Below are positions 747-32,064 of a DNA stretch of 64,000 nt, piece after piece. The notes beneath the pieces were generated by a model. It was given only the letters and a program-made list of their open reading frames with translations, was not told the DNA's origin and made no database searches. Every line of letters begins with the position of its first letter. The first letter of the stretch is position 1. The position numbers and the translations under genes were made by a program. The stretch is from Candidatus Omnitrophota bacterium (GTDB lineage: Bacteria > Omnitrophota > Gorgyraeia > 1-14-0-20-64-10): NCBI GenBank assembly GCA_023248155.1, contig JAHFFE010000002.1:124824-188823 (forward strand). Direction: 5' to 3'.

Positions 747-1286
747 GTGATTAAGTGCGATCTCTGCTCCAAGAATGAAGCCGTTTTCCATTTAAGCGAG
801 GTCATTAACGGCAAGAGCAGGGAACTGCATTTGTGCGAGTCCTGCGCGCGCGAAAAAGGCGCCGAGCAGCTGGCGTTAAACGCCCCGCTTATTGACCCCG
901 CCGGAACGGCCGCCGGAAGTTTGGCTTCATTGCTCGCCGGCCTGGCTGATCTGGGCACTAAAACTCCGCCTGGCCAAAAACCGGTCACGCCCAAAATAAC
1001 CTGTTCCGGGTGCGGCATGACCTTCGCGCAGTTCCGCAAGGCAGGCCGGTTTGGCTGCGCGTCCTGTTACGGCGCTTTTTCCCGTTATTTGACGCCGCTG
1101 CTGCGCAGGATTCACGGTGCCGTTCAGTATTCTGGAAAGTCTCCCAATCGCAAAGCCCCGAAAAGAATCTCCGCGAAAGAACGTCTGCTCCGTCTGAAGA
1201 CGGAACTTCAATCGGCGGTCTCAGCCGAGGAGTTTGAAAAAGCTGCCGCTTTGCGCGACAAGATCCGCTTGCTGGAAAAGAAGTAA
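747..1286 (+). CDS. mcsA: Protein-arginine kinase activator McsA (Cys-rich Zn-finger-like repeats plus C-terminal UVR motif)
   Basis: CxxC pairs (CDLCSKN, CESCAREK, CSGCGM, CASCYG). UVR-like C-terminus (EEFEKAAALRDKIRLLEKK). Sits immediately upstream of mcsB. Confidence 0.8.
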   Translation: MIKCDLCSKNEAVFHLSEVINGKSRELHLCESCAREKGAEQLALNAPLIDPAGTAAGSLASLLAGLADLGTKTPPGQKPVTPKITCSGCGMTFAQFRKAGRFGCASCYGAFSRYLTPLLRRIHGAVQYSGKSPNRKAPKRISAKERLLRLKTELQSAVSAEEFEKAAALRDKIRLLEKK

Positions 1287-2341
1287 TGAAACAGCCGCTG
1301 ACATTTGACAGCCTTCTGCATCAAACCGGGGAGTGGCTGCGAAGTACCGGCCCTCATCACACAATTGTTCTTTCGTCGCGCATCCGCCTCGCGCGTAATT
1401 TAAACGGCCAGCCGTTTCCGCATTGGGCCTCTTCGGCCCAGCGCACCAAAATTGTTCGCAAGGTGGTGGCGGCCGTCGGGAAATCCAGTTTTTTGAAAGG
1501 GTCGCTTATTCTGCCGATGAAAAAACTATCGGCGCTGGACAAGCAATTCCTCGTCGAGCGGCATTTGATCAGCCGCGATTTCGCGCAGCCGCCCGATGAA
1601 AAAGCGGTGGTCATCAGCGACCGCGAGATTGTGTCCATCATGATCAACGAAGAAGATCATCTGCGGCTGCAGGTGATGCAGTCAGGGCTCCGTCTCGATG
1701 AAGCCTGGGCGATTTTGCAACGGATTGATCAGGAACTTGAGAAACAACTCGACTACGCGTTTCGCGATGACTGGGGCTATCTGACGGCCTGTCCCACCAA
1801 TGTAGGGACCGGTATGCGCGCATCGTGCATGCTGCATCTGCCATGCCTGGTGATGACGCGGCAAATGGAGCGCGTGCTCAACGCGATTTCCAAACTGGGA
1901 ATGACGGCGCGCGGATTTTACGGCGAGGGGACCGAAGCTTCCGGTAATTTTTATCAGTTATCCAACCAGGTGACGCTCGGTATTTCCGAGACTGACACAA
2001 TCAATCAGTTGGACCGGATTATCCAGAAGGTGGTCGAGCAGGAGGAAGCGGCCCGCAAAGTGCTGCTGAAAAATCACCGTGAAATTCTGGAAGATAAAAT
2101 CTGGCGCGCCTATGGCACGCTGCGCAGCGCCGCGCAGATCAGCTCCGGCGAAGCGGTAAAACTGCTGTCGCTGGTCCGGCTGGGCACCGACATCGGACGG
2201 ATTCCCGTTAAAGACCCGGCGCTGATGAACCGTCTTTTTGTTCAGATTCAGCCGGCCTATCTGCAGAAACTGGAAGGGAAGATTCTCTCTCCGGATGAGC
2301 GCGACAAGCGCCGCGCGCAGCTTCTGCGCGAAGCGTTTTAA
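1286..2341 (+). CDS. mcsB: Protein arginine kinase McsB (ATP:guanido phosphotransferase family)
   Basis: Phosphagen-kinase active-site signature CPTNVGTGMRAS. Length 351 aa. Start overlaps the mcsA stop (ATGA). Confidence 0.85.
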   Translation: MKQPLTFDSLLHQTGEWLRSTGPHHTIVLSSRIRLARNLNGQPFPHWASSAQRTKIVRKVVAAVGKSSFLKGSLILPMKKLSALDKQFLVERHLISRDFAQPPDEKAVVISDREIVSIMINEEDHLRLQVMQSGLRLDEAWAILQRIDQELEKQLDYAFRDDWGYLTACPTNVGTGMRASCMLHLPCLVMTRQMERVLNAISKLGMTARGFYGEGTEASGNFYQLSNQVTLGISETDTINQLDRIIQKVVEQEEAARKVLLKNHREILEDKIWRAYGTLRSAAQISSGEAVKLLSLVRLGTDIGRIPVKDPALMNRLFVQIQPAYLQKLEGKILSPDERDKRRAQLLREAF

Positions 2342-2436
2342 CCACAGCCTCAGATAGTTAGCAATAGAATAACTTAGATAATTTTTCTGCTATTTATCCC
2401 GTCACATAGGTTATACTTCTTTTATAGCACCTACAA

Positions 2437-5400
2437 ATGAATAGTTCACAGCCTAAAACCCAACGGATTTTTCGACCGGCGGAGTTTTTATTTCTCCGCT
2501 TTCTAAGCGCTTTGCTGATTATTAGCATCGCGCTGCCGCCTTCATCTGCTTACGCGCTGCGGTCTCTTTCGGCAGTCGAATCTGGCGCCGAAGAAGAACT
2601 CACCCAATCGTTGAAACCTTCCGCACTTTCGGACAATGGATTGGCCGGTGAAATACGGGAAGAAATTTTAAGAGAAACCGCGTTTCTTCGCGTTGTTAAT
2701 ACGGGAAACAGTCCCTCATGGTTTACGGATATCGAAACGGAATATGTGCGGCAACATCCGGATCAGCGGCCGGCTGATCCGACTCCGCCCTGGATGCATT
2801 TGGTTGAAGGAGCAGACCGCCAGGTGTGGGTTCATCTGCATCTGTTCAGTGATCGTGCCGATCCGAATAGTTTGATGAACGGACTTTTGGTTGAGCTCAG
2901 GGAAGATGCCTCTGATTCGGCGTCGCCCCGTCTTCAGCCGGGTCGTATTCTCATTGAGCCATCTACCCACAGCCAGGTGCGGCGGTTTTTCTTGGATATA
3001 GAAGGTGACCCCGCGAATAATTTGCCGCCAGTTTTTGACGAACTGATTCGCAGCGCACTTCAGCATGAGATTACCGAGATGTTGAACCGGCCGGCTTACG
3101 GATTCCGGAAGTCTTTCACGCGTTTCCAGACAGAAAGAAAAACTTTGTTCGTGATAGCCGCATCCATCAATTCCGATCAACCCGGTTTGTATATGATGCT
3201 TCGGAGAAAGACAGCGGATCGTCCCGGTCCCCAGCTGGAATGGATGGCGCAATCCGGCCCTTATTTTGTTTTCGGAGATCGTCAGCGAGATGTTATTTTT
3301 CGCCGTCTCGACCAGCCGGAAGATCTTCCCGCGAAACGGCAGATTCTGAATCAACTAGGCGAAGGGGCCGGGCAGGAGGAGCGGAAGGAATTTTCTTCAA
3401 GACAGAAGCAATGGGCAAGGGTTGGTCTTGGTCTTTTAGGGGCGCTGGTTATCTCAGTAGGAACCATGGGTGGGTGGCCGTTAGGATTAAAAATTGCTCG
3501 AACCTGGGAACGGTCTCCCGCAGCGCTTTCCAAGAACAAAGATTATAAACATGAGGATCTGCAGAAATTGGCTGAAGATGTCCCGGCACCTTTGATAAAT
3601 GCTCGGCTTCAAGTTCGGCCTGAGGATGAGTCAAAAGTAAGTGGTTGGACACAGTATGGCGCGAAGACCGAAAATCCTTATTTGTTTGATATAGAGATTC
3701 CAGCTGGCCAGGCCAATGCAACAGTCCGAATACAATTGGTTTTACCCGATGGCACTGCGCCTCGTACTCATATTTACGACGGCATTCGAGTTAGTCAGGG
3801 TATGTACTCTATTTACTCAGAGAATGTCCAATGGAATATTGTTGCTGTAGATAAAGATAATAAAACCCGAATTCCAATTTCAGAACAAGCCCTGAATCTG
3901 GCAGAACTTTCATCTGCCGGATATTTTTATTCGGCAGATCATCCGGAATGGGAAAATATCGGTAGTTTTGAACTAGAACTTACAGTTGGAAGACCCCCTT
4001 GGTGGAATGACCTTTCAAAAGCTAGTTCTACGAGAATTATTATAGGATCAGCCAAAGTTGTTCGAACCCTGCAATATCAAAAAGCCCAGACTGCTCAAAG
4101 GGCTTTTCAAATTCTTTTTTCTCTGCTTGGTTTTTCTGCGACCGCGGTTCCGGTATGGTGGCTGTACCGCTCATTGAAAGAGAAAAAACCAGAAGCCGGG
4201 CAGGAGGAGCAGAAGGAGCTTTCTCCGACGCAGAAACGATGGGCGAAGGTTGGGTTTGGATTGCTGGGGCTGACGCTTGTCTCATTGACTACGCTGGGCG
4301 GCGCGGGCGGTGGATTGCAGCTGGCCCGCAACACCGAATATGATCCAGTGGAACGCCGGTCGGTTGTTTCGGCGCCTCCCGGAAAAATTATTGAACCTGT
4401 CGCGGCTATTGCACCCGATCCGACTAACGATACTCGATGGCCGGAGGTAGATGCGTCGCTGGAAGTGGTTCCTTCGGATCGCGAGAAGGTGCGCAATTGG
4501 CGTTTGTTTAGCGAGCCCGATCCCGATCAGCCGCAATTATTTACCGATAAACCAGGCCCGACCGGATTCATAGAAAAGGGCGGCTGGATCAGCGGATACG
4601 ATTTTACGCTGGAAATTCCGGCGGGCCAATCCAGCGTGACGATCCGTACGAAAGCGTCTTTGCCCGATGGAAGTCCTCTCGATTCGCGCGTCTATGGAGA
4701 TCTTTATACCGGTGTTTATCCCGATCCGCAGATGCCCGTTCAAATGTCAGCGGTTTCTTCCGATCAAACGTTCGAGAAAAAATACAGAGCGGCTTATGTG
4801 GCACAGAACACCTTGACTGTTTTGTATATTCAGGAAGACCCTGCGTGGGAACAGGTTCATTCCGTGGAACTGGAGTGGACATTTAATCGCCCTGCCGGGA
4901 GCGATCTGAGCAAGCCGTTTTCCGCGCAAGTGCACATGGATACGCTTCACGCCGCTCGCGACGAAAAATACAAAACAATCCAGGAACGGCGGAGTTGGCG
5001 CAATTTTTCTTACGGACTTGCGGGAGCACTGCTTGGCTTTACGATTTCCGCCGGCGCCGCCTACTGGCTGTACCGCTCATTGAGAGAGAAAAAACCGGAA
5101 GCCGGACAGGAAGAGAAGGTCGTTTCGAATGTTCAATTCCCATCGGGCTTGGAACCGGGCGCGAAAGATGCGATCCATGCCGCGATTTTGGAATTAAACC
5201 GAAGTGTTCAAAGCAATCTCACCCTGGTGAATACCGTCGCAAATTTTCGTGTGCGCTTGAATTCTGCCGTAACAGCGTTTACGCGGCCTTTATCGACGGA
5301 AGAATCCGATTTGCTGAAAACCATTACGCATACGACAAATGCCAATCAACTCCGCCCGGCTGGCGACCGTGACGCATTGTTGCGGTATCTCGAAAACGCT

Positions 5401-8400
5401 TCTGTGGTTCCCTCCGCCGGGCTGGAGGAACGGGGTTCTGTTCCGGTAGCTCGGGGAACGTTAGATGGGCGATTGCTGCGGTTGCCGGCCGGCTGGCTGA
5501 ATTTGAATGGAAAAAGAAAAGTTGTCGTTCAAAGAATAGACCGGGACGAAACGACAGGGCCTCATCTGGAGATTGTTACGCTCGATGAATTTGCTCGACG
5601 GAAAAGACGGGTTCATAGCCATATTCAATTAGGCTTCAGAGGTCTTCCGCATGCGCAGCAACATTTGAAGGCCGCTTTTGATCAGACCTACTATATCGCA
5701 GCGCTTAAAAAGGGCGGGATTGTGGAAATTTCCGAGGAATATCTCGCGCATGCCGGTGTTGTTCCTTCCGGAGACCTGGTGTTGATAGATCCGCCAAACC
5801 ATATAGAATTTTGGAATGCGGAAGCAGCCGCAGCCCGTTTTCAGGCGTTGTCATCCGTTCGCGTTTATGAAAAACCAGCCATCCAGTCTGAGTTGCAAAA
5901 ACTTGTGGCTGTGATGGAGAATCTGCTGGGCGCCCGGAATGACAGAGATGTCGCGGAAGCGCTTTACGACGCGGTGGCAGCTTTGGGCTACAGCGGTTTT
6001 GCGATGTATCTGGTCCGTCCCTCTGCGGGCGGGCAATACGATATCAGGAATGTTTATCGTAATCTTCCTCGCGAATCATCGGCGGCGGATTGGAAGCCGG
6101 CCCAGGATGAGATTGCCTACGCGCTTGCAAGTAACGAACCCGATCTCTTTATTGACCGGCTGGATAATACGGCGGATGTTTTTCCGCATGTCAGCCAGAG
6201 TTTCTTTACCCGGGACGCGAATGAGTATGGCGGCGGCGACAAAAATCGCGTGCGCCAGGTTTATTATCTTGTTGTCCGTGATCCGGTAACGCGTGAACCG
6301 AGAATGTTGATCCATTTAAACCGGTGGGCTGTCAACGAACCGGTTTTCTCGAGGGGCACTGCGGAAGAGCAGCGCCAGTTCCAGACGCACCTGCGCGGCG
6401 TTCTGGAAAGCTTGGGGTATGCCGCCTTGTTGGCCAGAGAGAATGTGCATTCCTATGAGCGGGCCGATATTTTTAACCGCTTGGGCGCGCGAAGAAGCAT
6501 TATTGGTAACCGCCTGCATAACGATGTTAAAAACAGTCTTGTTTTTGTGCCGACATTTATCGAACTTCTTGGCCAGCGGGAAAATCTGATTTTGGAAGAA
6601 ATGACCAATTTAAACCGGAACGTCGCGGAGTTAATGGCCGAAGTGATTGAGACGATGGGACGGGTTGAAAATCCGGGAGTTTCGTCGCAGCAGAATGGTT
6701 CGGCAGCGCCTCCGACGGAGCCGCTCGTTTCCGCAGATGATTTGGCTCTGCTGGAAGCGCTTTTCCATGACCTATCAGCGCAATTGTTAAATGCCGTCCG
6801 CCAGGATATGGATGCCGAAGATATGCGTACACGAATATTGAAACCTGTCCGGGATCGATTCAGCGCCAGTCGCTCCGCCCAGGCGGTTCTGGATCGGTGG
6901 GAACAGCTGGCTTCCACCGCGTCGATGGTGGTGTATGAGTTGCAACAGGAACGGGTAGATTTCCTGCGCAGAATTCCTGTTTTAAGACAACGATTTCTTG
7001 AACTGAAAACCCATGAAGCTCAACTCAGAACTGCCGCCGGCCGGTTGGATAATTTAGAAGCCCAAAAGAAAATCAGCATGATTATTTCGGGGACGATCAG
7101 AGCCCGCCGCTCAATGCTGCGGATATTAGATGAGTTGGAACACGCTTTGAGTGATGATTTGACTGTTTCTGAATTGCCTCCGCCGTATTCGGATCAGGTT
7201 GATCTTGTTTCCGAACTGCGGGAAATTATCGAGACCCGTTCCGGCCTGATGCAGTTGCATTTTTCGTCTGATTTGCCGGCAGCCTTAAGAGTGCCCGATG
7301 CGCGCGGTGATCTCGTATCGGGAATGCTGGGCGAGTTATTGGTGAATGCCTATAAAAACCGGCGGCCGGATGTTCCGTTGGAAGTTTGGGTATCGGTGCA
7401 ATATCAGGAATCAAGCGGAATGATTGATCTTACCGTTCGCGATAACGGCGCCGGAATTCCGTTAGCGAAGCGCGCGCAAATTTTTGAACGCGGAGCAACC
7501 AATGGAACATCGTCAGCCGGTGTTTCTCGCGGGCTGGGTCTGGCGACCAGGGAAGAACTGCAAAAATTGGGCGGCGGCATTGAGCTGGCCGAAAGTGTCC
7601 ATGCCGGTGATGCGAACGCAGCCCAGCCGGGCAGTACCTTCCATTTCTGGCTTCCGACGAATCCCTCCGCCGGCGCTGAGGAAAAAAAATCGGAATATGT
7701 TCTATCAAGAGGGCAGAGAATCACATTGTGGTTTGCATCCGCTACGCTGGGATTTGTGTTAACCGGATTAGGCACTGTGATTGGCGCCGGCGCTGGTTAC
7801 CACGCGGCTGAAACTTACTATCGGGCTGATGAAACCAAAAAACCGGCAGTCAGCCCGCCAGAATCTGATGCTCGCAATTATCCTTGGATGGTTGGCGGCG
7901 GGTTGGCTGGGTTGGTCGGTTCCATCGGGGCAATCCGCAGAGAGATTTCTTCAGGAAGAGACAAGCGTTCCGCTGGACTGGAGGAAAAAATAGTTGTTCG
8001 AGTTAACGACCAGGGGCAGCCTATTTTGAGCAGAGAAGGGTTGGCTGGCCGGATTCCCGGATACGGGAAAACAGTTGTTGTTCAGCCCCCCGCCGAGAGA
8101 TTAGCGGAAATTTCCGCGGTATTATCGGGCAAATTTTCCAACTTGGAAACGCTTCTTGTTCAGGCCTATCAATCCAAGGCGGATCCCATTGATATTTCTG
8201 CCATCAAGCAGGCAATCAGTCAGCTGAATCCGGAGTCACAAGTGTTTCGTCTTTCAGACACAATGAGTTTGGTGCAATTCATCGGATGGGTAGAGTCTTT
8301 GAACATCAGCTATTTTCATCAAATAGGCGTACATCTTTTGTTAAGACAAACTGTTGAAGGAGAGAGAATTTGGGCAAGGTATCAGTTTGGAGGGGCTCAA

Positions 8401-9732
8401 AATTGGGAGCAAATACCATATCTGAACGGGATCATCTATCTGAACCAAGGCACCGTTGATCGTGAACTTCCGTTTGAATGGGCCGGAACTCATCCGGCAA
8501 ACTCGGCGTACGCGCTTATGGATTTAGAGGCTGTCCGCTTATCGGATCAAAAGCAAGCAGAGCGTTATCGACAAGGCGGCTGGTCTGTGCTTGAGAAACA
8601 GTTGTTGATCGATCGCATTTACCTGGCGATGGAGGAGTCCCAAAGACGATTGGCAGAGGAGCGCTCCGCGTTTCTGGAAGAAACCCGGCACGCGCAAGAC
8701 GCGCTCTGGGCGTCTTTTTACCACGGGGTCGATGTGCGTCTTATAAACCAGGCTAATTTGCTCGTTGCCGACGCATTGGTTCGGCCGGATTCCTTGATCG
8801 ATAAAGTTTGGTCGCTCGGAAAAGGAAAATATCAAGTCAGGCAAACCCAAAAAAACCTGGAAGCTCTTTCCGCCAGGGCCGATGCCATTAGCGAACTTGC
8901 CGGCAATATGGGCAGTTTGCGGCAACAGATGAATGAACTTATTTTGGATGGAAAAGATCAGCAGGCATTTTTGATCTTCGCTTTGGATTTTGTGCGGCAG
9001 ATGAGAGCGGTCAATCAAGGGCATTCCAATACTGCCGATCTCTTTACTGCCTATATGTACCAAAAAGCGATTTCTGCTTCTCTGGGGATTCAGGAGCCAA
9101 CGGAAATTCTCATGTCCTTTATGCGTCAGCCATCGCCTGGCCGGGCCGCGTATGAATGGGTAGACCAATTTTACCGAAGAAATTTCTGGACCGACGAAGA
9201 GCGGGTCGCTTTGTTGGAAGGCAAATCCATCGCCGAGGTTTTGGCCGCTTCCGCCGGGGCGGAGGAATTGCAAGCGCGGCAGAGAATGACTGTTCTCGAC
9301 GAGGCGGCGCCGCAGGGGGCCGGTGTTTTGGTGATCGAGGCGCGGGCATTTGCCAACCGCGGCGGGTTGGAAGAATTTATCGGGCGGATTGGGGCATTAA
9401 AAACAAGAATAGTTTTGTTCGGCAGTGACAGCGCTGCTATTAAAGAATTAGCACTGCGCAATGGTGTTTCTGTTGTGGATAGCGACGATCCGGCCGATCT
9501 GGCGTTTCGTTTGGCCGGCATGGAAGAGCGCGCCAACCGGATCGGTTATGTTGGAAATTCAGAAACCGCCGGTCTGCTTGCGCGGATTCTTCCGGCCAGT
9601 ATGGTAGTTATTCCGTTGGGTTCTCCAACCCTCGAAAAAATGATGCTTTTTCTGGGCTATCCCTCCGCGGTGTTAAACAGCATCAATGCGGCCGGTTTTG
9701 AAGAGCAATTAGCCGCCTCTACCGCCGCGTAA
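2437..9732 (+). CDS. Giant (2431 aa) secreted/multi-pass membrane protein with embedded sensor histidine-kinase core (HisKA_2/HWE-like H-box plus HATPase_c); function unknown
   Basis: N-terminal signal-like segment (FLFLRFLSALLIISIALPPSSAYA). At least six hydrophobic helices, each followed by an acidic linker (..EAGQEE.., ..SAGLEEK..). Two homologous ~200-aa inter-TM domains (..LFDIEIPAGQANATVRIQLVLPDG.. and ..DFTLEIPAGQSSVTIRTKASLPDG..). Putative H-box IIGNRLHNDVKNSL near aa 1350. GHKL ATPase motifs near aa 1620-1740 (LGELLVNAYKN.., VRDNGAGIP, GLGLA). AT-rich stretches inside an otherwise GC-rich locus. Confidence 0.7.
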   Translation: MNSSQPKTQRIFRPAEFLFLRFLSALLIISIALPPSSAYALRSLSAVESGAEEELTQSLKPSALSDNGLAGEIREEILRETAFLRVVNTGNSPSWFTDIETEYVRQHPDQRPADPTPPWMHLVEGADRQVWVHLHLFSDRADPNSLMNGLLVELREDASDSASPRLQPGRILIEPSTHSQVRRFFLDIEGDPANNLPPVFDELIRSALQHEITEMLNRPAYGFRKSFTRFQTERKTLFVIAASINSDQPGLYMMLRRKTADRPGPQLEWMAQSGPYFVFGDRQRDVIFRRLDQPEDLPAKRQILNQLGEGAGQEERKEFSSRQKQWARVGLGLLGALVISVGTMGGWPLGLKIARTWERSPAALSKNKDYKHEDLQKLAEDVPAPLINARLQVRPEDESKVSGWTQYGAKTENPYLFDIEIPAGQANATVRIQLVLPDGTAPRTHIYDGIRVSQGMYSIYSENVQWNIVAVDKDNKTRIPISEQALNLAELSSAGYFYSADHPEWENIGSFELELTVGRPPWWNDLSKASSTRIIIGSAKVVRTLQYQKAQTAQRAFQILFSLLGFSATAVPVWWLYRSLKEKKPEAGQEEQKELSPTQKRWAKVGFGLLGLTLVSLTTLGGAGGGLQLARNTEYDPVERRSVVSAPPGKIIEPVAAIAPDPTNDTRWPEVDASLEVVPSDREKVRNWRLFSEPDPDQPQLFTDKPGPTGFIEKGGWISGYDFTLEIPAGQSSVTIRTKASLPDGSPLDSRVYGDLYTGVYPDPQMPVQMSAVSSDQTFEKKYRAAYVAQNTLTVLYIQEDPAWEQVHSVELEWTFNRPAGSDLSKPFSAQVHMDTLHAARDEKYKTIQERRSWRNFSYGLAGALLGFTISAGAAYWLYRSLREKKPEAGQEEKVVSNVQFPSGLEPGAKDAIHAAILELNRSVQSNLTLVNTVANFRVRLNSAVTAFTRPLSTEESDLLKTITHTTNANQLRPAGDRDALLRYLENASVVPSAGLEERGSVPVARGTLDGRLLRLPAGWLNLNGKRKVVVQRIDRDETTGPHLEIVTLDEFARRKRRVHSHIQLGFRGLPHAQQHLKAAFDQTYYIAALKKGGIVEISEEYLAHAGVVPSGDLVLIDPPNHIEFWNAEAAAARFQALSSVRVYEKPAIQSELQKLVAVMENLLGARNDRDVAEALYDAVAALGYSGFAMYLVRPSAGGQYDIRNVYRNLPRESSAADWKPAQDEIAYALASNEPDLFIDRLDNTADVFPHVSQSFFTRDANEYGGGDKNRVRQVYYLVVRDPVTREPRMLIHLNRWAVNEPVFSRGTAEEQRQFQTHLRGVLESLGYAALLARENVHSYERADIFNRLGARRSIIGNRLHNDVKNSLVFVPTFIELLGQRENLILEEMTNLNRNVAELMAEVIETMGRVENPGVSSQQNGSAAPPTEPLVSADDLALLEALFHDLSAQLLNAVRQDMDAEDMRTRILKPVRDRFSASRSAQAVLDRWEQLASTASMVVYELQQERVDFLRRIPVLRQRFLELKTHEAQLRTAAGRLDNLEAQKKISMIISGTIRARRSMLRILDELEHALSDDLTVSELPPPYSDQVDLVSELREIIETRSGLMQLHFSSDLPAALRVPDARGDLVSGMLGELLVNAYKNRRPDVPLEVWVSVQYQESSGMIDLTVRDNGAGIPLAKRAQIFERGATNGTSSAGVSRGLGLATREELQKLGGGIELAESVHAGDANAAQPGSTFHFWLPTNPSAGAEEKKSEYVLSRGQRITLWFASATLGFVLTGLGTVIGAGAGYHAAETYYRADETKKPAVSPPESDARNYPWMVGGGLAGLVGSIGAIRREISSGRDKRSAGLEEKIVVRVNDQGQPILSREGLAGRIPGYGKTVVVQPPAERLAEISAVLSGKFSNLETLLVQAYQSKADPIDISAIKQAISQLNPESQVFRLSDTMSLVQFIGWVESLNISYFHQIGVHLLLRQTVEGERIWARYQFGGAQNWEQIPYLNGIIYLNQGTVDRELPFEWAGTHPANSAYALMDLEAVRLSDQKQAERYRQGGWSVLEKQLLIDRIYLAMEESQRRLAEERSAFLEETRHAQDALWASFYHGVDVRLINQANLLVADALVRPDSLIDKVWSLGKGKYQVRQTQKNLEALSARADAISELAGNMGSLRQQMNELILDGKDQQAFLIFALDFVRQMRAVNQGHSNTADLFTAYMYQKAISASLGIQEPTEILMSFMRQPSPGRAAYEWVDQFYRRNFWTDEERVALLEGKSIAEVLAASAGAEELQARQRMTVLDEAAPQGAGVLVIEARAFANRGGLEEFIGRIGALKTRIVLFGSDSAAIKELALRNGVSVVDSDDPADLAFRLAGMEERANRIGYVGNSETAGLLARILPASMVVIPLGSPTLEKMMLFLGYPSAVLNSINAAGFEEQLAASTAA
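3355..5110 (+). repeat. Intragenic tandem duplication inside the giant CDS, repeated three times at the TM/linker junctions
   Basis: Near-identical DNA at ~3360-3470, ~4143-4330 and ~5040-5110 (e.g. ggctgtaccgctcattgaaagagaaaaaaccagaagccgggcaggaggagcagaagg versus ggctgtaccgctcattgagagagaaaaaaccggaagccggacaggaagagaagg). The encoded units are TM-WLYRSL(K/R)EKKPEAGQEE-..QK.WA(K/R)VG.GLLG-TM. The intervening ~200-aa domains are diverged but clearly homologous. Confidence 0.8.
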
Positions 9733-9829: not shown

Positions 9830-10348
9830 ATGAGAAATTTAATACGAATGGAAGAAATTGAGAATCATATCCTATTCGTCCGCGGGCACAAAGTAATGTT
9901 GGATGAAGGCTTGGCGCGGCTTTACGGTGTTTCTACAAAGCGTTTAAATGAACAGGTGCGACGAAATCGCGCTCGTTTTCCAAAAGATTTTATGTTTCAG
10001 CTTACGCCTGAAGAGGCCCGCTTTTTGAGGTCGCATTTTGCGACCTCAAGTTCGGAGCATGGAGGCCGGCGGTATCTCCCCTACGTGTTTACCGAACAAG
10101 GGATCGCCATGCTTTCCAGCGTGCTAAACAGCGAGAGAGCAGTCCAAGTGAATATTGCCATCATGCGAGCTTTTGTCAAATTGCGGAAGATTCTATCGAC
10201 CCATCGAGAATTTGCTCGAAAGCTTTCAGATTTGGAGCGTAAGTGGGAACTCCATGATGAACAAATACATTCGGTTTTTGAGGCAATCCGCCAGCTTATG
10301 GCGCCTGAACCTACGCGTCGCCGACGAATTGGATTTCACCGAGTGTAG
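9830..10348 (+). CDS. ORF6N-domain protein (KilA-N-related, phage antirepressor-like DNA-binding protein)
   Basis: The N-terminal half (..IENHILFVRGHKVMLDEGLARLYGVSTKRLNEQVRRNRARFPKDFMFQLTPEE..) is typical of the ORF6N family. The gene and its flanks are AT-rich relative to the locus. Confidence 0.65.
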   Translation: MRNLIRMEEIENHILFVRGHKVMLDEGLARLYGVSTKRLNEQVRRNRARFPKDFMFQLTPEEARFLRSHFATSSSEHGGRRYLPYVFTEQGIAMLSSVLNSERAVQVNIAIMRAFVKLRKILSTHREFARKLSDLERKWELHDEQIHSVFEAIRQLMAPEPTRRRRIGFHRV

Positions 10349-10493: not shown

Positions 10494-12989
<2,496 letters not shown>

Positions 12990-12993
12990 CCGT

Positions 12994-14379
12994 TTGAAAC
13001 GGATCGTGAAAAGGCGTTCTCTGGTTACGATCGGGCTGGCGGGCCTGTTGGCCGTCAGCGCGTCCGCGTGGGGAGTCACCGAAGCGGCCCGCCTGGCGTC
13101 TGAACGAGCGCTTTCCCGTTTCTTCCATCAGCCGGTTTCTATTCGCCGCGTTACATTTTCCGCCGATCAGATTACGCTGCATCATATTGAAATTGCTTAT
13201 TCCGCCGAATCATCGCCGGTAGTGATTGAGCGCGTCGAATGGCAGGGTTCCGTTTTTGAACTTTTAAAGACCCGCTTGCTGAAAGTCGGCCGGATGCCGT
13301 CGTCGGAAACATTTACGCTGCGCGGCGCGGCGGTGTTGGTGGCCGGTGTTCCGCTGCGCGCCACCGGGGTTCTTCATTTGGACCACCGTTTGCGCGCGCC
13401 CGCGTTCCTTTCAGGGCAGATGCAGTTAAATCATCCGTGGATTCACGCGCAGGCCGAAATTGCAGGAACATCGGTGAAGCCAGTTTTAATCGGCTGGGTC
13501 GACGGGAAAAAAATGGGACCGCACCGGTTTATCGCGCAATTGTCGCGTCAGGCGGAATGGGTTGGCATTGAACGTCTGGAAGTTCAGGGCGGCTGGTTGG
13601 CGCGCGGACAGTGGACCGGGCGCGACTCGACGCATCCGTTTTGGCGCGCCGAACTGGAACTGATGCATGACATCGACCGGTACCGGCTGGAGATGGGTCC
13701 TTCCGGGGAGGGAGCGATGCAGGCCGGCCTTTGGGTTTACCGTGAGGGATTGCCTCCGCAGGAATTGATGGCGGCCTGGAAGCCGGCCGACGAGGGTATT
13801 GAATGGAGCGCGCGGACCGGGTCCGGTCAATTGTCCGGATGGGGACGGATTTCCCGAAAGAACTGGCCGGAACTCTCAATGGCGATTGATCTGAAGCAGT
13901 TTGATTTAAAAGAAATATACCCCTGGTTTCCAAGGACCATTGCTTCACCATTATTGGCCGGAACATTTAATGGCCATTTGGAATTGGCCGGTATCTGGCC
14001 GGATCTGAAAAGCCAGGGCGAGATTTTCGGTGAAGATGGAAAATTCGGCGAGTTCAATTTTGAAGGGATTACGGTGCGGTTCCAGGGTGTCGGCCCCTAT
14101 CTGCGCATTTTTAATTCACATTTGAAGCAGCCGATCGGGCCGACCTATCTGGAAGGGACGCTCGATTTAAACCAGACCGGCAAGCCTGATTTCTTTCGGA
14201 ATGTCCGGATGTTGTCGACCGATCCGACGATCACGACGGCGCAATGGCAGATGAACTTAGCCGGTAATCCGCCGCTTGCGCTGGAAATGAAGCCGGCCAC
14301 AGCGGCGGGCAACCCGATCGGTGTGGCGTCCTCTGCCGGATCCGGAGCGAAGTCTGTTTCCGATGGAGAAAAAACGTGA
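12994..14379 (+). CDS. Hypothetical membrane-anchored protein (N-terminal TM/signal), possibly lipid-transport associated; precedes mlaEFD
   Basis: Long ORF starting with a TTG codon (read as Met), N-terminal hydrophobic segment. Translationally coupled to mlaE (stop overlaps its start). I recognise no motif. The start codon is uncertain. Confidence 0.4.
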   Translation: MKRIVKRRSLVTIGLAGLLAVSASAWGVTEAARLASERALSRFFHQPVSIRRVTFSADQITLHHIEIAYSAESSPVVIERVEWQGSVFELLKTRLLKVGRMPSSETFTLRGAAVLVAGVPLRATGVLHLDHRLRAPAFLSGQMQLNHPWIHAQAEIAGTSVKPVLIGWVDGKKMGPHRFIAQLSRQAEWVGIERLEVQGGWLARGQWTGRDSTHPFWRAELELMHDIDRYRLEMGPSGEGAMQAGLWVYREGLPPQELMAAWKPADEGIEWSARTGSGQLSGWGRISRKNWPELSMAIDLKQFDLKEIYPWFPRTIASPLLAGTFNGHLELAGIWPDLKSQGEIFGEDGKFGEFNFEGITVRFQGVGPYLRIFNSHLKQPIGPTYLEGTLDLNQTGKPDFFRNVRMLSTDPTITTAQWQMNLAGNPPLALEMKPATAAGNPIGVASSAGSGAKSVSDGEKT

Positions 14380-26060: not shown

Positions 26061-27512
26061 GTGACCACCGCTGGAATTGTTGATACGCACTGCCATCTGC
26101 ACCGCGCCGAATTTGATGCCGACCGCGACGCGATCCTTGCGCGCGCGCGCCAAATCGGTTTGACCGCGCTGATTGATCCGGCCACCGATGTCGCTTCAAG
26201 CCGGATTGTTGCGCAGACCGTCCAAAAATATCCCGAACTGTACGGCGCCGTCGGCGTTCATCCGCAAGACACGGCCGGTTTGACCGACGAAGGCCTGGAA
26301 GAGCTACGCAAGCTGGCGACGGCTCCGAAAATTGTGGCGATCGGCGAGATCGGTCTTGATTATTACCGTGAATCGACGCCCCGTGCTGTTCAACAGCAGG
26401 CGCTGCGCCGTTTATTGGCGCTTGCGCAAGAAACCAACAAACCGATTATTCTGCATTGCCGTCAGGAAGAGAGCGGCGGACTGGCCGGCCAGGGCGGGCA
26501 GGCGTATCAGGATCTCTTTTTAATTTTGCGCGAATGCATGAAGCCGCCGGTGCGCGGTGTTTTGCACTGTTTTTCAGGTGATCTCGAAGCGGCCAATGAG
26601 GCGATCGGCCTGGGTCTTTATTTATCGTTCGCCGGTATTTTAACTTTCACTAAAGCCGAAGCGCTGCGCGCGGTGGCCCGGCAGGTTCCATTCGACCGTG
26701 TGATGCTGGAAACCGACGCGCCGTTTTTATCGCCCCAGCCGTACCGCGGAAAACGGAATGAACCGGCTTTTCTCGACGCGCTGATTAAAACCTGGGCGGA
26801 AATCAAAGATTTGTCGGAAGAGGATGTCCGCCGCGTGACCTCGGTGAATGCGTATCAGTTGTTCGGTGTCGGCCAGGCCCCCGTGCGCGGGCGCGTGGCG
26901 TATGCGATCCGCGATTCGCTCTACATCAATCTGACGAATGCCTGTACCGACCGCTGTGTTTTTTGCGCGCTCAGCGACGATCAGTTCTGGAAAGGCGAGG
27001 GAACTTCACCGTTTGTGAAGGGGCATCATCTGCGAATGGCCAAAGATCCGTCGGTCGAGGAAGTTCTGTCCGCCGCGGGAGATCCATCTCAGTATAAAGA
27101 AATTGTTTTTTGCGGATACGGCGAACCGGTGATCCGGTTGAAAGAACTGCGCGAGATCGCGCTGCGCCTGCGTGAAAAAGGGGCGAAGTCGATCCGGATC
27201 AATACCAACGGGCACGGCAACTTAATTCATAAACGGCCGGTGGCCGGTGAGTTGAAGGGGATCGTCGACGAAATATCAGTCAGCTTAAATACACCGAACG
27301 CAGAACAATATCTGGAAATCTGCCGGCCGTCGTTCGGCCTGCCGGCCTATGAATCGATCAAACAGTTTATCCGCGACTGCCGCGACGCGGGGATCCGCGT
27401 GGTGGCGACTGTGGTGGCGATGCCCGGCGTTGATGTCGAGGCCTGCCGAAAAGTGGCTGAAGAGGAGTTGAAAGTGATTTATCGCGTGCGGGGTTACGAC
27501 GATGTGGGATAA
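26061..27512 (+). CDS. Fusion protein: TatD-family metal-dependent hydrolase (N-terminal ~265 aa) plus TatD-associated radical SAM domain (C-terminal ~215 aa)
   Basis: TatD motifs at the N-terminus (VDTHCHL.., ..GEIGLDYY.., ..LETDAPFL..). CX3CX2C radical-SAM cluster motif NACTDRCVFC at about aa 293. One continuous 483-aa ORF. Confidence 0.7.
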   Translation: MTTAGIVDTHCHLHRAEFDADRDAILARARQIGLTALIDPATDVASSRIVAQTVQKYPELYGAVGVHPQDTAGLTDEGLEELRKLATAPKIVAIGEIGLDYYRESTPRAVQQQALRRLLALAQETNKPIILHCRQEESGGLAGQGGQAYQDLFLILRECMKPPVRGVLHCFSGDLEAANEAIGLGLYLSFAGILTFTKAEALRAVARQVPFDRVMLETDAPFLSPQPYRGKRNEPAFLDALIKTWAEIKDLSEEDVRRVTSVNAYQLFGVGQAPVRGRVAYAIRDSLYINLTNACTDRCVFCALSDDQFWKGEGTSPFVKGHHLRMAKDPSVEEVLSAAGDPSQYKEIVFCGYGEPVIRLKELREIALRLREKGAKSIRINTNGHGNLIHKRPVAGELKGIVDEISVSLNTPNAEQYLEICRPSFGLPAYESIKQFIRDCRDAGIRVVATVVAMPGVDVEACRKVAEEELKVIYRVRGYDDVG

Positions 27513-30911: not shown

Positions 30912-32064
30912 AACCATGGACAGACCCACCGAAAACCTCACGGGCGCCATGGCGCCTCCGGTCTGGATCGAGACTGATTGTTCGGCGATCGTGCACAATT
31001 TCAAACAGATCCGCCGATGGGTCAGCCCCGGCGTTAAAATTCTGACGGTCGTTAAAGCCAACGCCTATGGGCATGGAATTTTACCGGTTTCCCGCGCATT
31101 GGTTGAGGCCGGCGCCGATCTGCTCGCCGTGGCGAGCGTCGTCGAAGGGGTCACGCTGCGCCAGGCCGGCATTGCCGGAAAAATTCTGGTGCTTGGCCAG
31201 TTGCTGCCCGACGAAGCGCCGCTGGTGGTTCATTATGATTTAACGCAGGCGCTCGGCGATGAACAAAGCGCGCGCGCATTAAGCGCTGCCGCCGTCCGAT
31301 TTCAAAAAACGGTTGCGATCCATCTGAAAATCGATACCGGCATGGGCCGTTACGGTGTCTGGCATGAAGAAGCGATGCCGTTGCTGGAACGGCTGACCGA
31401 TCTTCCGGGATTAAAGCGGGAAGGTGTTTTTACGCACTTCAGCAGTGCCGGCCAGAGCGTGCAGGTTTCCGAGGAACAGATGGCACGATACAACCGGTTG
31501 TTGGAACGAATGGCGCAGCGGCATTACGCGCCGGGACTTCGGCATTTGGCCAACAGCGTGGGGTTGATCCGTTTTCCGGAATCGCACTGGGATCTGGTCC
31601 GCACAGGCCTTCTGCTGTATGGAGCCTCTCCGGTCAAAGAAAATCAGCCGTTTATGCTGGAACCGGCGCTGACGTTAAAAAGCAGGATCCGTTTCATTAA
31701 ACTAATTCAGACCGGACAAACGGTCAGCTACGGAGGCACTTTTAAAGCCGAGAGGCCGACGGCCGTGGCGACGATCCCCGTCGGTTACGCGCATGGGTAT
31801 CCGCGCACACTTTCCAACAAGGCCGAACTGCTGGTGCGCGGCCGGCGCGTTCGGGTGATTGGGAAAATCACCATGGAAGATCTGATGATTGATGTGACGG
31901 AAGTTCCCGAAGCGGCGATTGGTGATGAAGTGGTCTTGATCGGCCGGCAGGGGAATGAACGGATTACCGCCGAAGAACTGGCCATGCATGCGCGCACGAT
32001 CCCGTACGAAATTCTCGTCGGACTTTCAGCGAACATTCCCCGTTTATCGGCAGGCGCCGCGTGA
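30898..32064 (+). CDS. alr: Alanine racemase
   Basis: PLP-lysine motif VVKANAYGHG. Length 388 aa. Confidence 0.85.
   Translation: MPQNRTMDRPTENLTGAMAPPVWIETDCSAIVHNFKQIRRWVSPGVKILTVVKANAYGHGILPVSRALVEAGADLLAVASVVEGVTLRQAGIAGKILVLGQLLPDEAPLVVHYDLTQALGDEQSARALSAAAVRFQKTVAIHLKIDTGMGRYGVWHEEAMPLLERLTDLPGLKREGVFTHFSSAGQSVQVSEEQMARYNRLLERMAQRHYAPGLRHLANSVGLIRFPESHWDLVRTGLLLYGASPVKENQPFMLEPALTLKSRIRFIKLIQTGQTVSYGGTFKAERPTAVATIPVGYAHGYPRTLSNKAELLVRGRRVRVIGKITMEDLMIDVTEVPEAAIGDEVVLIGRQGNERITAEELAMHARTIPYEILVGLSANIPRLSAGAA

Follow-up and report, generated by a model that had tools for sequence, protein, structure and literature searches.

A giant gene between mcsB and clpC of an Omnitrophota genome: a probable cassette-exchange locus for a multi-module protein

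What kind of protein is encoded by the giant open reading frame (ORF) between mcsB and clpC in this Omnitrophota genome, and is its kinase-like part the core around which the rest is built? An earlier note on the window (the whole 64-kb stretch of DNA analysed here) described a single multi-pass membrane sensor around an internal histidine-kinase core. Its outline of the locus holds: domain searches confirm mcsA, mcsB and clpC as the flanks, and the ORF of 2,431 codons shows zero internal stops. A separate assembly from ENA (L001) differs from the window at 6 of 12,969 nt and encodes an identical giant protein, so the gene is neither a chimera nor a pseudogene, two of the outcomes named as refuting it. 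The window is also collinear with the Ca. Omnitrophica MAG contig PCVW01000038.1 over 15 genes. As explained below, the locus rather probably serves the exchange of cassettes in an exported multi-module protein, one of whose cargoes is the kinase-like part.

HATPase_c is the sole Pfam or NCBIfam match of the protein, in agreement with the claim that no named family fits it. The signal-like N-terminus is likewise borne out, with a K/R-containing n-region, a hydrophobic core (aa 15-33) and the sequence ...SSAYA↓LR. Transmembrane (TM) helices are present, although the claimed number of at least six holds in part: besides the leader, crude hydropathy gives five clear hydrophobic helices (aa 329-347, 559-577, 605-623, 857-875 and 1764-1782) and one weak, glycine-rich one. 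The two homologous inter-TM domains are real (aa ~322-588 and ~597-890; 31% identity, E 2e-31), as are the AT-rich internal stretches (GC 0.41-0.43 at positions 3600-4200); GC is 0.432 in the B1 domain, 0.535 in its paralogue B2 and 0.514 in the whole gene. The ~650-aa C-terminal region described as having no obvious family resolves into a TM pair (aa 1750-1845), the module C (aa 1851-2272) and a C-terminal domain (CTD; aa 2278-2431). The cargo of the window allele thus comprises cassette A, the two TM-domain-TM cassettes B1 and B2, the small m4, the GHKL kinase-like cassette, m6 with its TM pair, and cassette C (Table 1). Cassette A shows 40% identity with aa 764-993 of the family protein P0003, and this homology is bounded by delimiters on both sides.

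Table 1. Features of the giant gene and its neighbours, with nucleotide positions counted from the first letter of the window
Feature	Amino acids	Nucleotides	Strand	Remarks
mcsA		747-1286		left of mcsB
mcsB (protein arginine kinase)		1286-2341	+	ATP-gua_Ptrans, E 4.5e-70; left flank of the slot
AT-rich intergenic region		2342-2436	+	-10-like TATACT at 2412-2417, 19 nt before the ATG; no Shine-Dalgarno site
Giant ORF	1-2431	2437-9732	+	
Leader	1-48	2437-2580	+	Sec/SPase-I-type signal peptide, end ...SSAYA↓LR
Delimiter 1, SGAEE	49-53	2581-2595	+	
Cassette A	54-310	2596-3366	+	no Pfam match
Delimiter 2, AGQEE	311-315	3367-3381	+	DNA GCCGGGCAGGAGGAG
Cassette B1	316-586	3382-4194	+	K/R-rich stretch, TM helix, ~200-aa domain, TM helix; low GC, 0.43
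Delimiter 3, AGQEE	587-591	4195-4209	+	
Cassette B2	592-888	4210-5100	+	paralogue of B1 (31% identity, E 2e-31)
Delimiter 4, AGQEE	889-893	5101-5115	+	
Cassette m4	894-993	5116-5415	+	homologous to P0056 aa 1127-1229; no Pfam match
Delimiter 5, AGLEE	994-998	5416-5430	+	
Kinase-like cassette	999-1744	5431-7668	+	N-terminal region, helical segments, DHp-like hairpin (~aa 1505-1575), HATPase_c CA domain
Candidate H-box of the earlier note, LHNDVKNSL	1360-1368	6514-6540	+	unsupported
HATPase_c CA domain	1630-1741	7324-7659	+	PF02518, E 2.6e-14
Delimiter 6, AGAEE	1745-1749	7669-7683	+	starts 4 residues past the end of HATPase_c
Cassette m6	1750-1845	7684-7971	+	K/R-rich start, clear TM helix 1764-1782, weak glycine-rich hydrophobic segment
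Delimiter 7, AGLEE	1846-1850	7972-7986	+	
Cassette C	1851-2272	7987-9252	+	family-specific module; in 12 other proteins
Delimiter 8, AGAEE	2273-2277	9253-9267	+	directly before the C-terminal domain
C-terminal domain	2278-2431	9268-9729	+	five-stranded Rossmann-like alpha/beta fold; end ...STAA
Motif copies inside the C-terminal domain		GGLEE 9361-9375; AGMEE 9514-9528; AGFEE 9691-9705	+	
ORF6N-domain gene		9830-10348	+	ORF6N, E 3.9e-34; accessory passenger in the slot
clpC		10494-12989	+	Clp_N, AAA, AAA_2, ClpB_D2-small; right flank of the slot

The modules are separated by the pentapeptide [A/S/T]-G-[L/A/M/Q]-E-E, which occurs 11 times in the giant protein against 0.14-0.22 copies expected from shuffled sequences, and in none of the other ORFs of at least 150 aa in the window. 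Across 89 related proteins, 311 copies are observed against 4.5 expected, with a density of 5.06 per 1000 aa in family ORFs versus 0.065 in non-family ORFs. The motif had been noticed as an acidic EAGQEE/AGLEEK linker following each TM helix; it is real and non-random, but just 3 of the 11 copies follow such a helix. It marks module boundaries, not TM helices. The linker had been taken as a side detail; the motif is the main feature of the gene.

Delimiters sit between domains: none of 60 in eight family proteins falls inside a Pfam envelope, none of the 11 copies in the giant protein lies within HATPase_c, the ends of homology blocks between family members coincide with them, and one lies within ±15 aa of the C-terminal boundary of cassette C in 13 of 14 copies. 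The pentapeptide stands before each cassette, behind a Pro-rich linker, and in nearly every member it also follows the signal peptide, often twice. The CTD contains 3-4 copies within its predicted fold, at helix N-termini or in loops, and the delimiter ahead of it coincides with the predicted start of helix 1. The profile of 219 sites, in which G and EE are fixed by the search pattern itself, shows A at position -1 in 68% and L at +1 in 56%; Ile and Phe are also found at +1 in some members. The median cassette has 264 aa, comparable to a whole protein, and in several cassettes (here B1, B2 and m6) a separate Tat- or Sec-like signal begins 3-13 residues past the delimiter; in P0011, P0027 and P0051, Tat-like signals lie directly behind delimiters.

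The codons of the delimiter are biased toward GCC GGG CWG GAG GAG at all five positions (p 2e-6 to 3e-3), which indicates a nucleotide-level component as well. Identical 15-mers are found at unrelated junctions, and within the window the delimiter 15-mer is restricted to the giant gene. The hexamer GGAGGA is ∼5 times denser in this gene than in other coding sequences of an organism that uses Shine-Dalgarno sites on about 40% of its genes. Start codons downstream of delimiters are not enriched in the delimiter profile. GCTGGAGG shows no enrichment across the window, and the motif is therefore not a Chi-type signal.

The giant ORF belongs to an apparently undescribed Omnitrophota gene family, with 88 relatives found by exhaustive HMMER searches, a census skewed to relatives of the C-terminal third of the protein because this third served as the query. 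Its members consist of a Sec/SPase-I-type leader (AxA↓LR), unrelated cassettes and a Rossmann-like CTD of ∼155 aa ending in ...AA; they range from 0.2 to 3 kaa, with identities as low as ∼30%. Homologous leaders are present in 20 other family proteins (consensus ...LALGLPSPAFA↓LRP) and are not seen on non-family ORFs; the test for the AxA↓LR leader is positive for the giant protein (...SSAYA↓LRSLS), and P0008 of locus L012 has no leader. Family genes in L002, L004, L005, L011 and L013 are preceded by GGGTATA(C/G)T at a distance of 7-22 nt. The CTD is found in 76 other proteins and takes the extreme C-terminus in 77 of 79 occurrences; that of the window, ending in ...STAA, shows 30-69% identity with 39 other aligned CTDs, and its structure model (pLDDT 93) is a five-stranded Rossmann-like alpha/beta fold. 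Neither delimiter nor CTD has a match in Pfam or NCBIfam. None of the 40 CTD sequences has the DxD of HAD motif I where strand 1 ends; they carry E (20), D (6) or G (5) at the motif-I position, followed by A, P or T. Leader, m4, C and CTD are distributed as a mosaic among the members, whose cassettes include sigma70-r4 domains, peptidases, methyltransferases, dehydrogenases and GHKL ATPases. A single-module version of cassette C exists as P0063/PIQ82311.1 in a Ca. Omnitrophica MAG; the AF2 model of cassette C is unusable (pLDDT 49). Neither a protease candidate nor a conserved neighbouring gene of the family was found at the loci examined.

The proposed comparison of the mcsB-clpC interval in relatives is answered in part: a family member occupies the slot in five genomes, with differing cargo. 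In the window and in L005, L011, L012 and L013, the slot is flanked by mcsB and/or clpC (by mcsB also in L005, L011 and L013), and the clpC of the window is 86% identical at the amino acid level to those of L005 and L012. The promoter and leader block is 81-85% identical in DNA among L005, L011 and L013, and in the three loci compared, the 5' DNA homology ends at "ALR" where a leader is present. Homology restarts exactly at the codons of the pre-CTD delimiter, at nt 3762 of L012 (AGLEE at residue 1117) and nt 10014 of L005 (SGLEE at residue 582). DNA homology at both ends with different cargo in between indicates that cargo is exchanged between conserved ends. The giant ORF is accordingly best read as one allele of a leader-cassettes-CTD gene in the mcsB-clpC slot and other slots of an Omnitrophota clade. 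The neighbouring ORF6N gene, missing from the other four slots compared, is assigned by PADLOC to PDC-S05 (E 6.9e-59) and the AAA_14 protein of L013 to PDC-S01; the giant protein, P0005, P0008 and P0038 have no PADLOC match. The earlier note had recorded the position of the gene and missed its meaning as a conserved hypervariable slot.

The kinase-like part has to be weighed against this anatomy. If the protein were a giant multi-pass sensor histidine kinase, its periplasmic or inter-TM domains would sense, a DHp+CA core would autophosphorylate and the regulator would be encoded elsewhere, a reading that is improbable. The GHKL/HATPase_c domain is genuine, with N-box LLVNAYKN (1634-1641), G1 VRDNGAGIP (1667-1675) and G2 GLGLA (1699-1703); TM-flanked domains lie upstream, and phmmer aligns aa ∼1504-1741 to the DHp+CA region of HK853 (2c2a/3dge), which likewise shows a helical hairpin ahead of the CA domain. 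The phospho-His column of this alignment, however, falls on Val1515, and the nearest histidine, H1526 in KTHEAQLR, is 11 residues off; it stands 111 aa ahead of the N-box Asn, a normal H-box spacing for HisKA kinases, and is a possible alternative phospho-acceptor. The candidate H-box LHNDVKNSL (H1361) finds no support: 276 aa separate it from the N-box Asn downstream, and by inspection its Asn and Leu are one residue out of register with H-x-x-K-N-x-L, the consensus of HisKA_2/HWE-type H-boxes. HisKA, HisKA_2, HisKA_3 and HWE profiles give no match to the giant protein even at E<=10, and neither helical segment alone, among them the one around LHNDVKNSL, matches a solved DHp domain. In contrast to HK853, there is no recognisable H-box, no nearby partner (none of the ∼45 ORFs annotated in the window carries a Response_reg domain; a genome-wide search for a cognate regulator had been suggested) and the part is exchangeable. 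It is one of eight delimiter-bounded cassettes, missing from the four other slot genes in related genomes and without a homologue among the 88 other family proteins examined, and GHKL modules without any DHp domain occur in P0035 and P0014. The claim of a single sensor organised around a kinase core is thus not supported, and the kinase-like cassette is best read as cargo.

Other explanations concern the delimiter or the gene itself. The protein might be an unprocessed giant membrane protein in which the pentapeptide is a helix-capping linker (AG as N-cap, xEE as first helical turn) inherited through cassette fusion, with no role in signalling or cleavage. The motif copies at helix N-termini or in loops of the modelled CTD, the pre-CTD delimiter at the predicted start of helix 1, the missing protease partner and the codon bias and identical 15-mers expected of junctions of shared descent all fit this idea, which is nevertheless rather unlikely: the bias at -1 and +1, seen where unrelated domains meet at hundreds of junctions, exceeds the needs of a generic linker, G and EE (admittedly fixed by the search pattern) persist in proteins whose identity falls to ∼30%, nearly all members have the motif behind the signal peptide too, and cassettes open with their own targeting signals. 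The same codon bias and identical 15-mers, together with the homology breakpoint exactly at the delimiter and the density of GGAGGA in a genome with Shine-Dalgarno sites, could instead mean that the delimiter works mainly at the nucleic-acid level, the 15-mer GCCGGGCWGGAGGAG being a recombination handle or GGAGGAG a Shine-Dalgarno-like pause site that would allow cassette-wise co-translational folding or targeting, with the peptide as a by-product. Many delimiters, however, use GAA GAA or other non-Shine-Dalgarno-like codons and still keep the peptide, Ile and Phe are possible at +1 even though their codons never end in G, and neither downstream start codons nor GCTGGAGG are enriched; selection therefore acts on the peptide itself. 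As a main role this is unlikely, and a nucleic-acid role more likely complements the cassette-exchange explanation than replaces it. A pseudogene, gene-fusion artefact or chimeric assembly, suggested by the unusual length, the GC of 0.43 at 3600-4200 and the metagenomic origin, is extremely improbable given the unbroken ORF, the same protein in an independent assembly with 6 nt different, and a leader, delimiters and CTD that all fit the family consensus in one frame.

Several known systems resemble parts of this architecture. T9SS cargo combines an N-terminal Sec signal, variable cargo and a conserved extreme C-terminal domain, a beta-sandwich of ∼80 aa; the system belongs to the Bacteroidota, and its gingipains are made as precursors of several domains and cleaved at fixed positions. 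To our knowledge, T9SS cargo has no repeated pentapeptide delimiter. The giant protein shares the Sec leader, variable cargo and conserved extreme C-terminal domain with T9SS cargo such as the Porphyromonas gingipain polyproteins (PMC5445135, PMC5562754). An assignment to T9SS cargo is rejected: the CTD is a Rossmann-like domain of ∼155 aa, and Por_Secre_tail/TIGR04183-type matches are absent in Pfam and NCBIfam. MARTX toxins, secreted by the type I route without an N-terminal signal peptide, carry unrelated effector cassettes that are shuffled between strains, with linkers cut by an internal cysteine protease (CPD). The likeness lies in several unrelated cassettes on one polypeptide with a shuffled repertoire; glycine-rich A/B/C repeats and a CPD are absent from the whole protein and its modules in Pfam and NCBIfam, and a MARTX identity is rejected. 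Polymorphic toxin, Rhs and CDI systems are allelic genes at a fixed locus in variable islands, with conserved targeting parts, functional parts replaced wholesale and fast turnover; their N-terminal bulk is conserved, the C-terminal toxin varies and an immunity gene is adjacent. Here, in contrast, conservation is at both ends and variation in the middle, and neither an immunity-gene pattern nor a toxin domain was identified at the loci of the family. Viral polyproteins also hold unrelated units and short conserved separators in one ORF, and a [small]-G↓x site resembles several papain-like viral protease sites. The present family differs as a cellular, chromosomal one with many paralogues and alleles, no protease found and a putative cut.

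The same phylum, judged by the collinearity with the Omnitrophica MAG, has giant mosaic proteins of "Archaeovorin" or dockerin type (10.1101/2023.11.21.568195, 10.64898/2026.06.07.730766, PMC10066038). Like the present protein, they have a signal peptide, TM helices and strings of unrelated, divergent enzyme or regulatory domains; they are rich in HATPase_c, methyltransferase and HAD or HAD-like domains (10.1101/2023.11.21.568195, 10.64898/2026.06.07.730766). They reach 10,000-147,000 aa, in contrast to 0.2-3 kaa in the delimiter family. The "Archaeovorin" type exceeds 30,000 aa and carries SecA_DEAD, glycosyl transferase/hydrolase, NUDIX and C39/S8 peptidase domains (10.1101/2023.11.21.568195); this identity is rejected, with 2,431 aa, HATPase_c as the sole domain found and no SecA_DEAD, C39/S8 peptidase, glycosyl hydrolase or dockerin match in Pfam. 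The delimiter motif, the conserved CTD and the mcsB-clpC slot are not described in 10.1101/2023.11.21.568195 and 10.64898/2026.06.07.730766. For the giants, post-translational cleavage has been proposed by West-Roberts et al., who state that cleavage-point information is missing and that this blocked their analysis (10.1101/2023.11.21.568195).

Under the cassette-exchange explanation, the product would be Sec-targeted and then exported or inserted into the membrane. The delimiter may mark the sites where the chain is recognised and cleaved, or handled in some other way, and the cassettes would then act as separate units of a polyprotein-like multi-effector. Cleavage is plausible, judging from the sequence. 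It is proposed because an invariant short motif stands in exposed Pro-rich linkers, small residues occupy -3 and -1 of a putative G↓x cut, the median cassette is the size of a whole protein and cassettes start with their own Tat- or Sec-like signals. Since copies also occur inside the folded CTD, the motif can have a structural function instead of marking a cut. The conserved ends could double as recombination handles. Fast cargo turnover in a slot that collects defence candidates would suggest that the proteins serve conflict between organisms or interaction with a host, in keeping with the episymbiotic or predatory lifestyle proposed for Omnitrophota. Against this explanation, export seems odd for cargo of cytoplasmic type (sigma70-r4, HTH, NAD-dependent dehydrogenases, an ATP-dependent kinase) unless it acts in another cell, and a Tat signal behind a Sec leader makes for an awkward mechanism. 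The leaderless P0008 and the failure to find a protease candidate or a conserved neighbour at the loci examined also count against it. A bolder proposal, tentative and on balance doubtful, is that Omnitrophota encode true cellular polyproteins: a dedicated protease or sorting machine would read [A/S/T]-G-x-E-E and cut Sec-targeted chains of captured genes into independent proteins, some of them with Tat or Sec signals of their own. The Rossmann-like CTD with its tail ...AA would be the handle of this machine, the same code in the giants of 10-150 kaa would provide their missing cleavage points, and leader and tail would allow effector sets to be swapped by recombination at slots such as mcsB-clpC.

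Omnitrophota are marked by giant mosaic proteins, and this locus bears on the way these are built and processed. With a near-invariant delimiter, a confidently modelled CTD without a database entry and a slot with five cargoes, it offers a small, tractable model. As a processing code, the delimiter would represent a rare polyprotein logic in a cellular organism, and giant Omnitrophota ORFs could then be split in silico into functional units. Even without cleavage, cassette exchange between conserved ends is a clear route to rapid diversification of exported proteins in this uncultivated and probably host-dependent phylum.

The open reading frame of the giant protein, located at 2437 to 9732 on the plus strand, comprises 2,431 codons with no internal stop. 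Between the window and a separate ENA assembly of the region (L001), 6 of 12,969 nt differ and the encoded protein is identical, which excludes the pseudogene or chimeric assembly that the earlier note had allowed for. The gene is flanked by mcsB and clpC, as that note had stated. Pfam and NCBIfam recognize only a HATPase_c domain (aa 1630 to 1741; E 2.6e-14), and a search with the modules one by one yields no further match even at E≤10, in agreement with the claim that the protein fits no named family. Two TM-flanked modules of ∼200 aa are indeed homologous (31% identity; E 2e-31), and the reported AT-rich stretch (GC content of 0.41 to 0.43 at 3600 to 4200) corresponds to the first of these paralogous inter-TM domains. 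Cassettes B1, B2, and m6 start with a K/R-rich stretch and a hydrophobic helix. An even number of TM helices per TM-containing cassette, which would be topologically neutral, was considered and dropped, the Kyte-Doolittle scan being too noisy across the family. Module C is given no fold assignment because its AF2 model, with a pLDDT of 49, is unusable. Rfam shows no match in the window, and promoter and terminator scans of the window give chance-level results only.

The key feature of the giant protein is a pentapeptide. The pattern [A/G/S]-G-x-E-E occurs in 11 copies, compared to 0.22 expected from shuffled sequences, and is absent from every other open reading frame of at least 150 aa in the 64-kb window. 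The acidic linker described earlier is thus real, but just three of its copies come after a TM helix. Across 89 proteins, [AGST]-G-[LMAQIVFT]-E-E is found 311 times against 4.5 expected, and in ∼150 kb of genomic DNA, family open reading frames contain 5.06 copies per 1,000 aa versus 0.065 in all other long ones. At 219 sites outside the conserved C-terminal domain (CTD), the glycine of this delimiter is preceded by a Pro-rich segment (−5 to −3), A, S, or T at −2, and A at −1 (68%), and is followed by L (56%), A (19%), M (9%), or Q (5%) and then E-E. The position of the delimiter is that of a boundary: Pfam envelopes in eight proteins contain none of their 60 delimiters, and in the giant protein the HATPase_c domain ends at aa 1741, with the next delimiter starting at aa 1745. 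Of 14 copies of module C, 13 have a delimiter no more than 15 aa to either side of their C-terminal boundary; of 66 CTD copies, 52 have one no more than 11 aa to either side of the N-terminal boundary (79%, compared to 19% at random positions). The median cassette length is 264 aa.

An initial homology search with the giant protein returned only two relatives, P0002 (1,564 aa) and P0003 (2,160 aa). Both share the signal-like N terminus and the recurring pentapeptide with different domains between the motifs, P0003 carrying an alpha/beta-hydrolase, a cupin, and a 2-hydroxyacid dehydrogenase. Homology among the three proteins comes in blocks terminating at motifs: aa 54 to 310 of the giant protein match aa 764 to 993 of P0003, and aa 1851 to 2272 match both aa 68 to 564 and aa 982 to 1410 of P0002. 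An exhaustive HMMER search of 1.84 billion representative proteins with aa 1744 to 2431 as the query yielded 88 proteins. In ∼75 of these, compared to 3 with a word-index search, the match is limited to the last ∼155 aa, the CTD, and twelve contain module C. P0002 and P0003 end in tails that were considered as CTDs and rejected, since these show no homology to that domain. About 40 members open with a classical Sec/SPase-I signal (...LALGLPSPAFA|LRP...), followed 4 to 30 residues later by the first delimiter. The cargo includes sigma70 region 4, XRE-type HTH, trypsin-like and M23 peptidases, S9/alpha-beta hydrolases, methyltransferases, ROK, 2-hydroxyacid dehydrogenase, and HATPase_c or HATPase_c_2. 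Minimal members consist of the leader, two delimiters, and the CTD (P0009) or of the leader, one delimiter, and module C (P0063). The split family gene of contig L010 (see the table) probably reflects a frameshift, which may be an error of sequencing or a genuine disruption.

The CTD forms the extreme C terminus in 77 of 79 occurrences, in host proteins of 71 to 2,997 aa. Its AlphaFold model, built from a 40-sequence alignment, confidently predicts a five-stranded alpha/beta domain (pLDDT 93; pTM 0.87). Three to four more G-L-E-E motifs lie inside the domain, at helix N termini or in loops, and its last residue is alanine in all 40 sequences, with ...LARxRAA as the typical end.

Five related genomes carry a family member in the mcsB-clpC slot, with a different cargo in each: the giant protein and ORF6N in the window, P0004 (sigma70-r4 and trypsin-like) in L005, P0005 (M23 peptidase) in L011, P0008 (alpha/beta-hydrolase) in L012, and P0038 with a PhdYeFM antitoxin and an AAA_14/DUF4143 gene in L013. 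Both mcsB and clpC are visible in L005, L011, and L013, and clpC only in L012. The promoter and signal peptide up to 'ALR' are 81 to 85% identical in DNA among L005, L011, and L013, while the cargo shares nothing. Homology restarts exactly at the codons of the pre-CTD delimiter (nt 3762 of L012, AGLEE at aa 1117; nt 10014 of L005, SGLEE at aa 582), past which L012 and L005 are 90.7% identical over 3,165 nt, into clpC. This pattern at the DNA level is one of cassette replacement between conserved ends. The P0008 allele of L012 may be 5'-rearranged or decaying. ORF6N of the window matches a phage-defense candidate of PADLOC, PDC-S05 (E 6.9e-59), and the gene is absent from the slot in the other four loci. 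Since the slot of L013 also holds the antitoxin and an ATPase matching the PADLOC candidate PDC-S01 (E 4e-67), the slot acts as a small variable or defense island; the family proteins in the slot match no defense system in PADLOC.

In a one-genome-per-species collection, the sole genome-assigned family member belongs to the Ca. Omnitrophica MAG contig L004 (PCVW01000038.1; PIQ82311.1), which is collinear with the window from 22.5 to 45 kb (15 genes; 43 to 83% amino acid identity), so that the window derives from a relative within the Omnitrophota. The alr-ilvD interval, with different contents in the two, is a second variable slot. Family genes elsewhere stand singly amid housekeeping genes, and no conserved neighboring protease or secretion gene was found at the loci compared. 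Among other genes of the window, the 461-aa open reading frame directly after clpC is fast evolving, with 31% identity to its syntenic counterpart in L005 compared to 74 to 86% for its neighbors. The reverse transcriptase scores below the cutoff for group II intron RT/maturases (77 versus 300 bits) and below those for Drt3a and Drt4, two antiviral RTs. No intron RNA is detected by Rfam in the window, and the enzyme is an unclassified RT.

Features of the window and of related loci
Feature	Locus	Position	Remarks
mcsA-like	Window	747-1286	UVR motif
mcsB	Window	1286-2341	ATP-gua_Ptrans, E 4.5e-70
First inter-TM domain	Window	3484-4101	GC 0.432
Second inter-TM domain	Window	4312-5004	GC 0.535
ORF6N gene	Window	9830-10348	In gap between giant gene and clpC; GC 0.474 (window 0.559)
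clpC	Window	10494-12989	Right flank of slot
461-aa ORF	Window	12994-14379	Signal peptide; no Pfam/NCBIfam family
TatD-related DNase/amidohydrolase + radical-SAM fusion	Window	26061-27512	483 aa; 64% identity kept in L004
PIG-L-type deacetylase + alpha/beta-hydrolase	Window	32061-34264	488 aa and 245 aa; alr-ilvD interval
Reverse transcriptase	Window	58366-59943	525 aa; RVT_1, E 2e-21; amid LPS-core heptosyltransferase genes
P0063, single-module family member	L004	9764-11467	alr-ilvD interval
Split family gene	L010	148-927, 813-2111	Two overlapping ORFs (leader + AGLED motifs; cargo + CTD)
P0008 allele	L012	413-4243	Conserved promoter + leader missing; small opposite-strand ORF upstream
PhdYeFM antitoxin, AAA_14/DUF4143 ATPase	L013	215-490, 4770-5948	Slot accessory genes
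-10-like element	Window	2412-2417	
-10-like element	L002	~126	
-10-like element	L004	~9736	
-10-like element	L005	~8257	
-10-like element	L011	~545	
-10-like element	L013	~795	

The delimiter is also biased at the level of its DNA. In 69 delimiters from 11 genes, codon usage is biased relative to the same genes, with GCC for Ala at 71% versus 32% (p 2e-6), GGG for Gly at 48% versus 23%, CTG or TTG for Leu at 90% versus 55%, and GAG for Glu at 62 to 71% versus 43%. The consensus of the inter-module delimiter DNA is GCCGGGCWGGAGGAG; with up to 2 mismatches, this 15-mer has 4 sites in the window, all within the giant gene, compared to 0.36 expected. A plain DNA repeat is nevertheless rejected, since third-codon positions vary; the codon bias comes in addition. 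Many delimiters use other codons for the same peptide, and the peptide itself is therefore under selection. A Chi-like recombination signal is ruled out, GCTGGAGG occurring once in the window against 1.6 expected, as are internal translation starts after delimiters, where start codons are not enriched. Shine-Dalgarno sites precede ∼40% of the genes of this organism, and GGAGGA is ∼5 times denser in the giant gene than in other coding sequences. The delimiter DNA might possibly play a role in ribosome pausing or as a recombination handle. Upstream of the family genes, a −10-like element, GGGTATA(C/G)T, lies 7 to 22 nt 5' of the ATG (merely 7 nt in L005, L011, and L013) with no Shine-Dalgarno site, an arrangement that suggests leaderless or near-leaderless mRNAs.

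The reading of the giant protein as a sensor kinase is only partly supported, although the underlying observation is largely confirmed. The CA (HATPase_c) domain is genuine, but no HisKA-type profile matches. The H-box proposed earlier, LHNDVKNSL (H1361), is not borne out, as it lies 276 aa upstream of the N-box Asn and has no such match. In a phmmer alignment of aa ∼1504 to 1741 with the DHp and CA domains of HK853, the phospho-His column is occupied by Val1515. H1526 (KTHEAQLR), 111 aa before the N-box Asn, is a better phospho-His candidate than H1361. Both helical segments, searched singly against solved DHp domains, give no match, the 64-kb window encodes no response regulator, and the family relatives examined contain no homologue of this cassette. 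A kinase function is possible; the kinase-like cassette is cargo.

Judging from the leader, the product would be targeted by the Sec pathway. The delimiter may serve as a recognition or cleavage signal, because it is invariant in Pro-rich linkers, because a putative G|x cut would have small residues at positions −3 and −1, and because the cassettes are as large as entire proteins and several of them begin with a targeting signal of their own. A Tat-like TRRDFLKG follows a delimiter by 3 to 13 residues in P0011, P0027, and P0051. These Tat-type signals start at aa 67, 19, and 59, respectively, and P0035 contains a similar TRREFLRMG; in P0011, P0051, and P0035 a Sec-type leader precedes the signal, and P0027, which has no recognizable Sec leader, may be an N-terminally truncated gene call. 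The inferred cleavage at delimiters is weakened by the motif copies in the folded CTD and by the failure to find a protease.

Several known systems resemble the family in part. T9SS cargo shares the arrangement of signal, cargo, and C-terminal domain, MARTX arrays share exchangeable effector cassettes, and polymorphic-toxin loci share allelic replacement, but the family fails the defining test of each. Omnitrophota are known for giant mosaic proteins in which signal peptides and numerous TM helices occur together with HATPase_c, methyltransferase, and HAD domains (10.1101/2023.11.21.568195; 10.64898/2026.06.07.730766). Neither paper mentions the delimiter motif, the conserved C-terminal domain, or the mcsB-clpC slot, and literature searches on the motif strings and on polyproteins in Omnitrophota returned nothing relevant. 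The comparisons show the family anatomy, the placement of delimiters where cassettes meet, the mosaic occurrence of the cassettes, and their exchange at a fixed slot whose ends are conserved. The giant gene, which lies at a hypervariable slot, belongs to a family of cassette-built proteins that is apparently undescribed. This family belongs with the Omnitrophota mosaic proteins as a variant of these, and its delimiter is a concrete, testable candidate for their punctuation.
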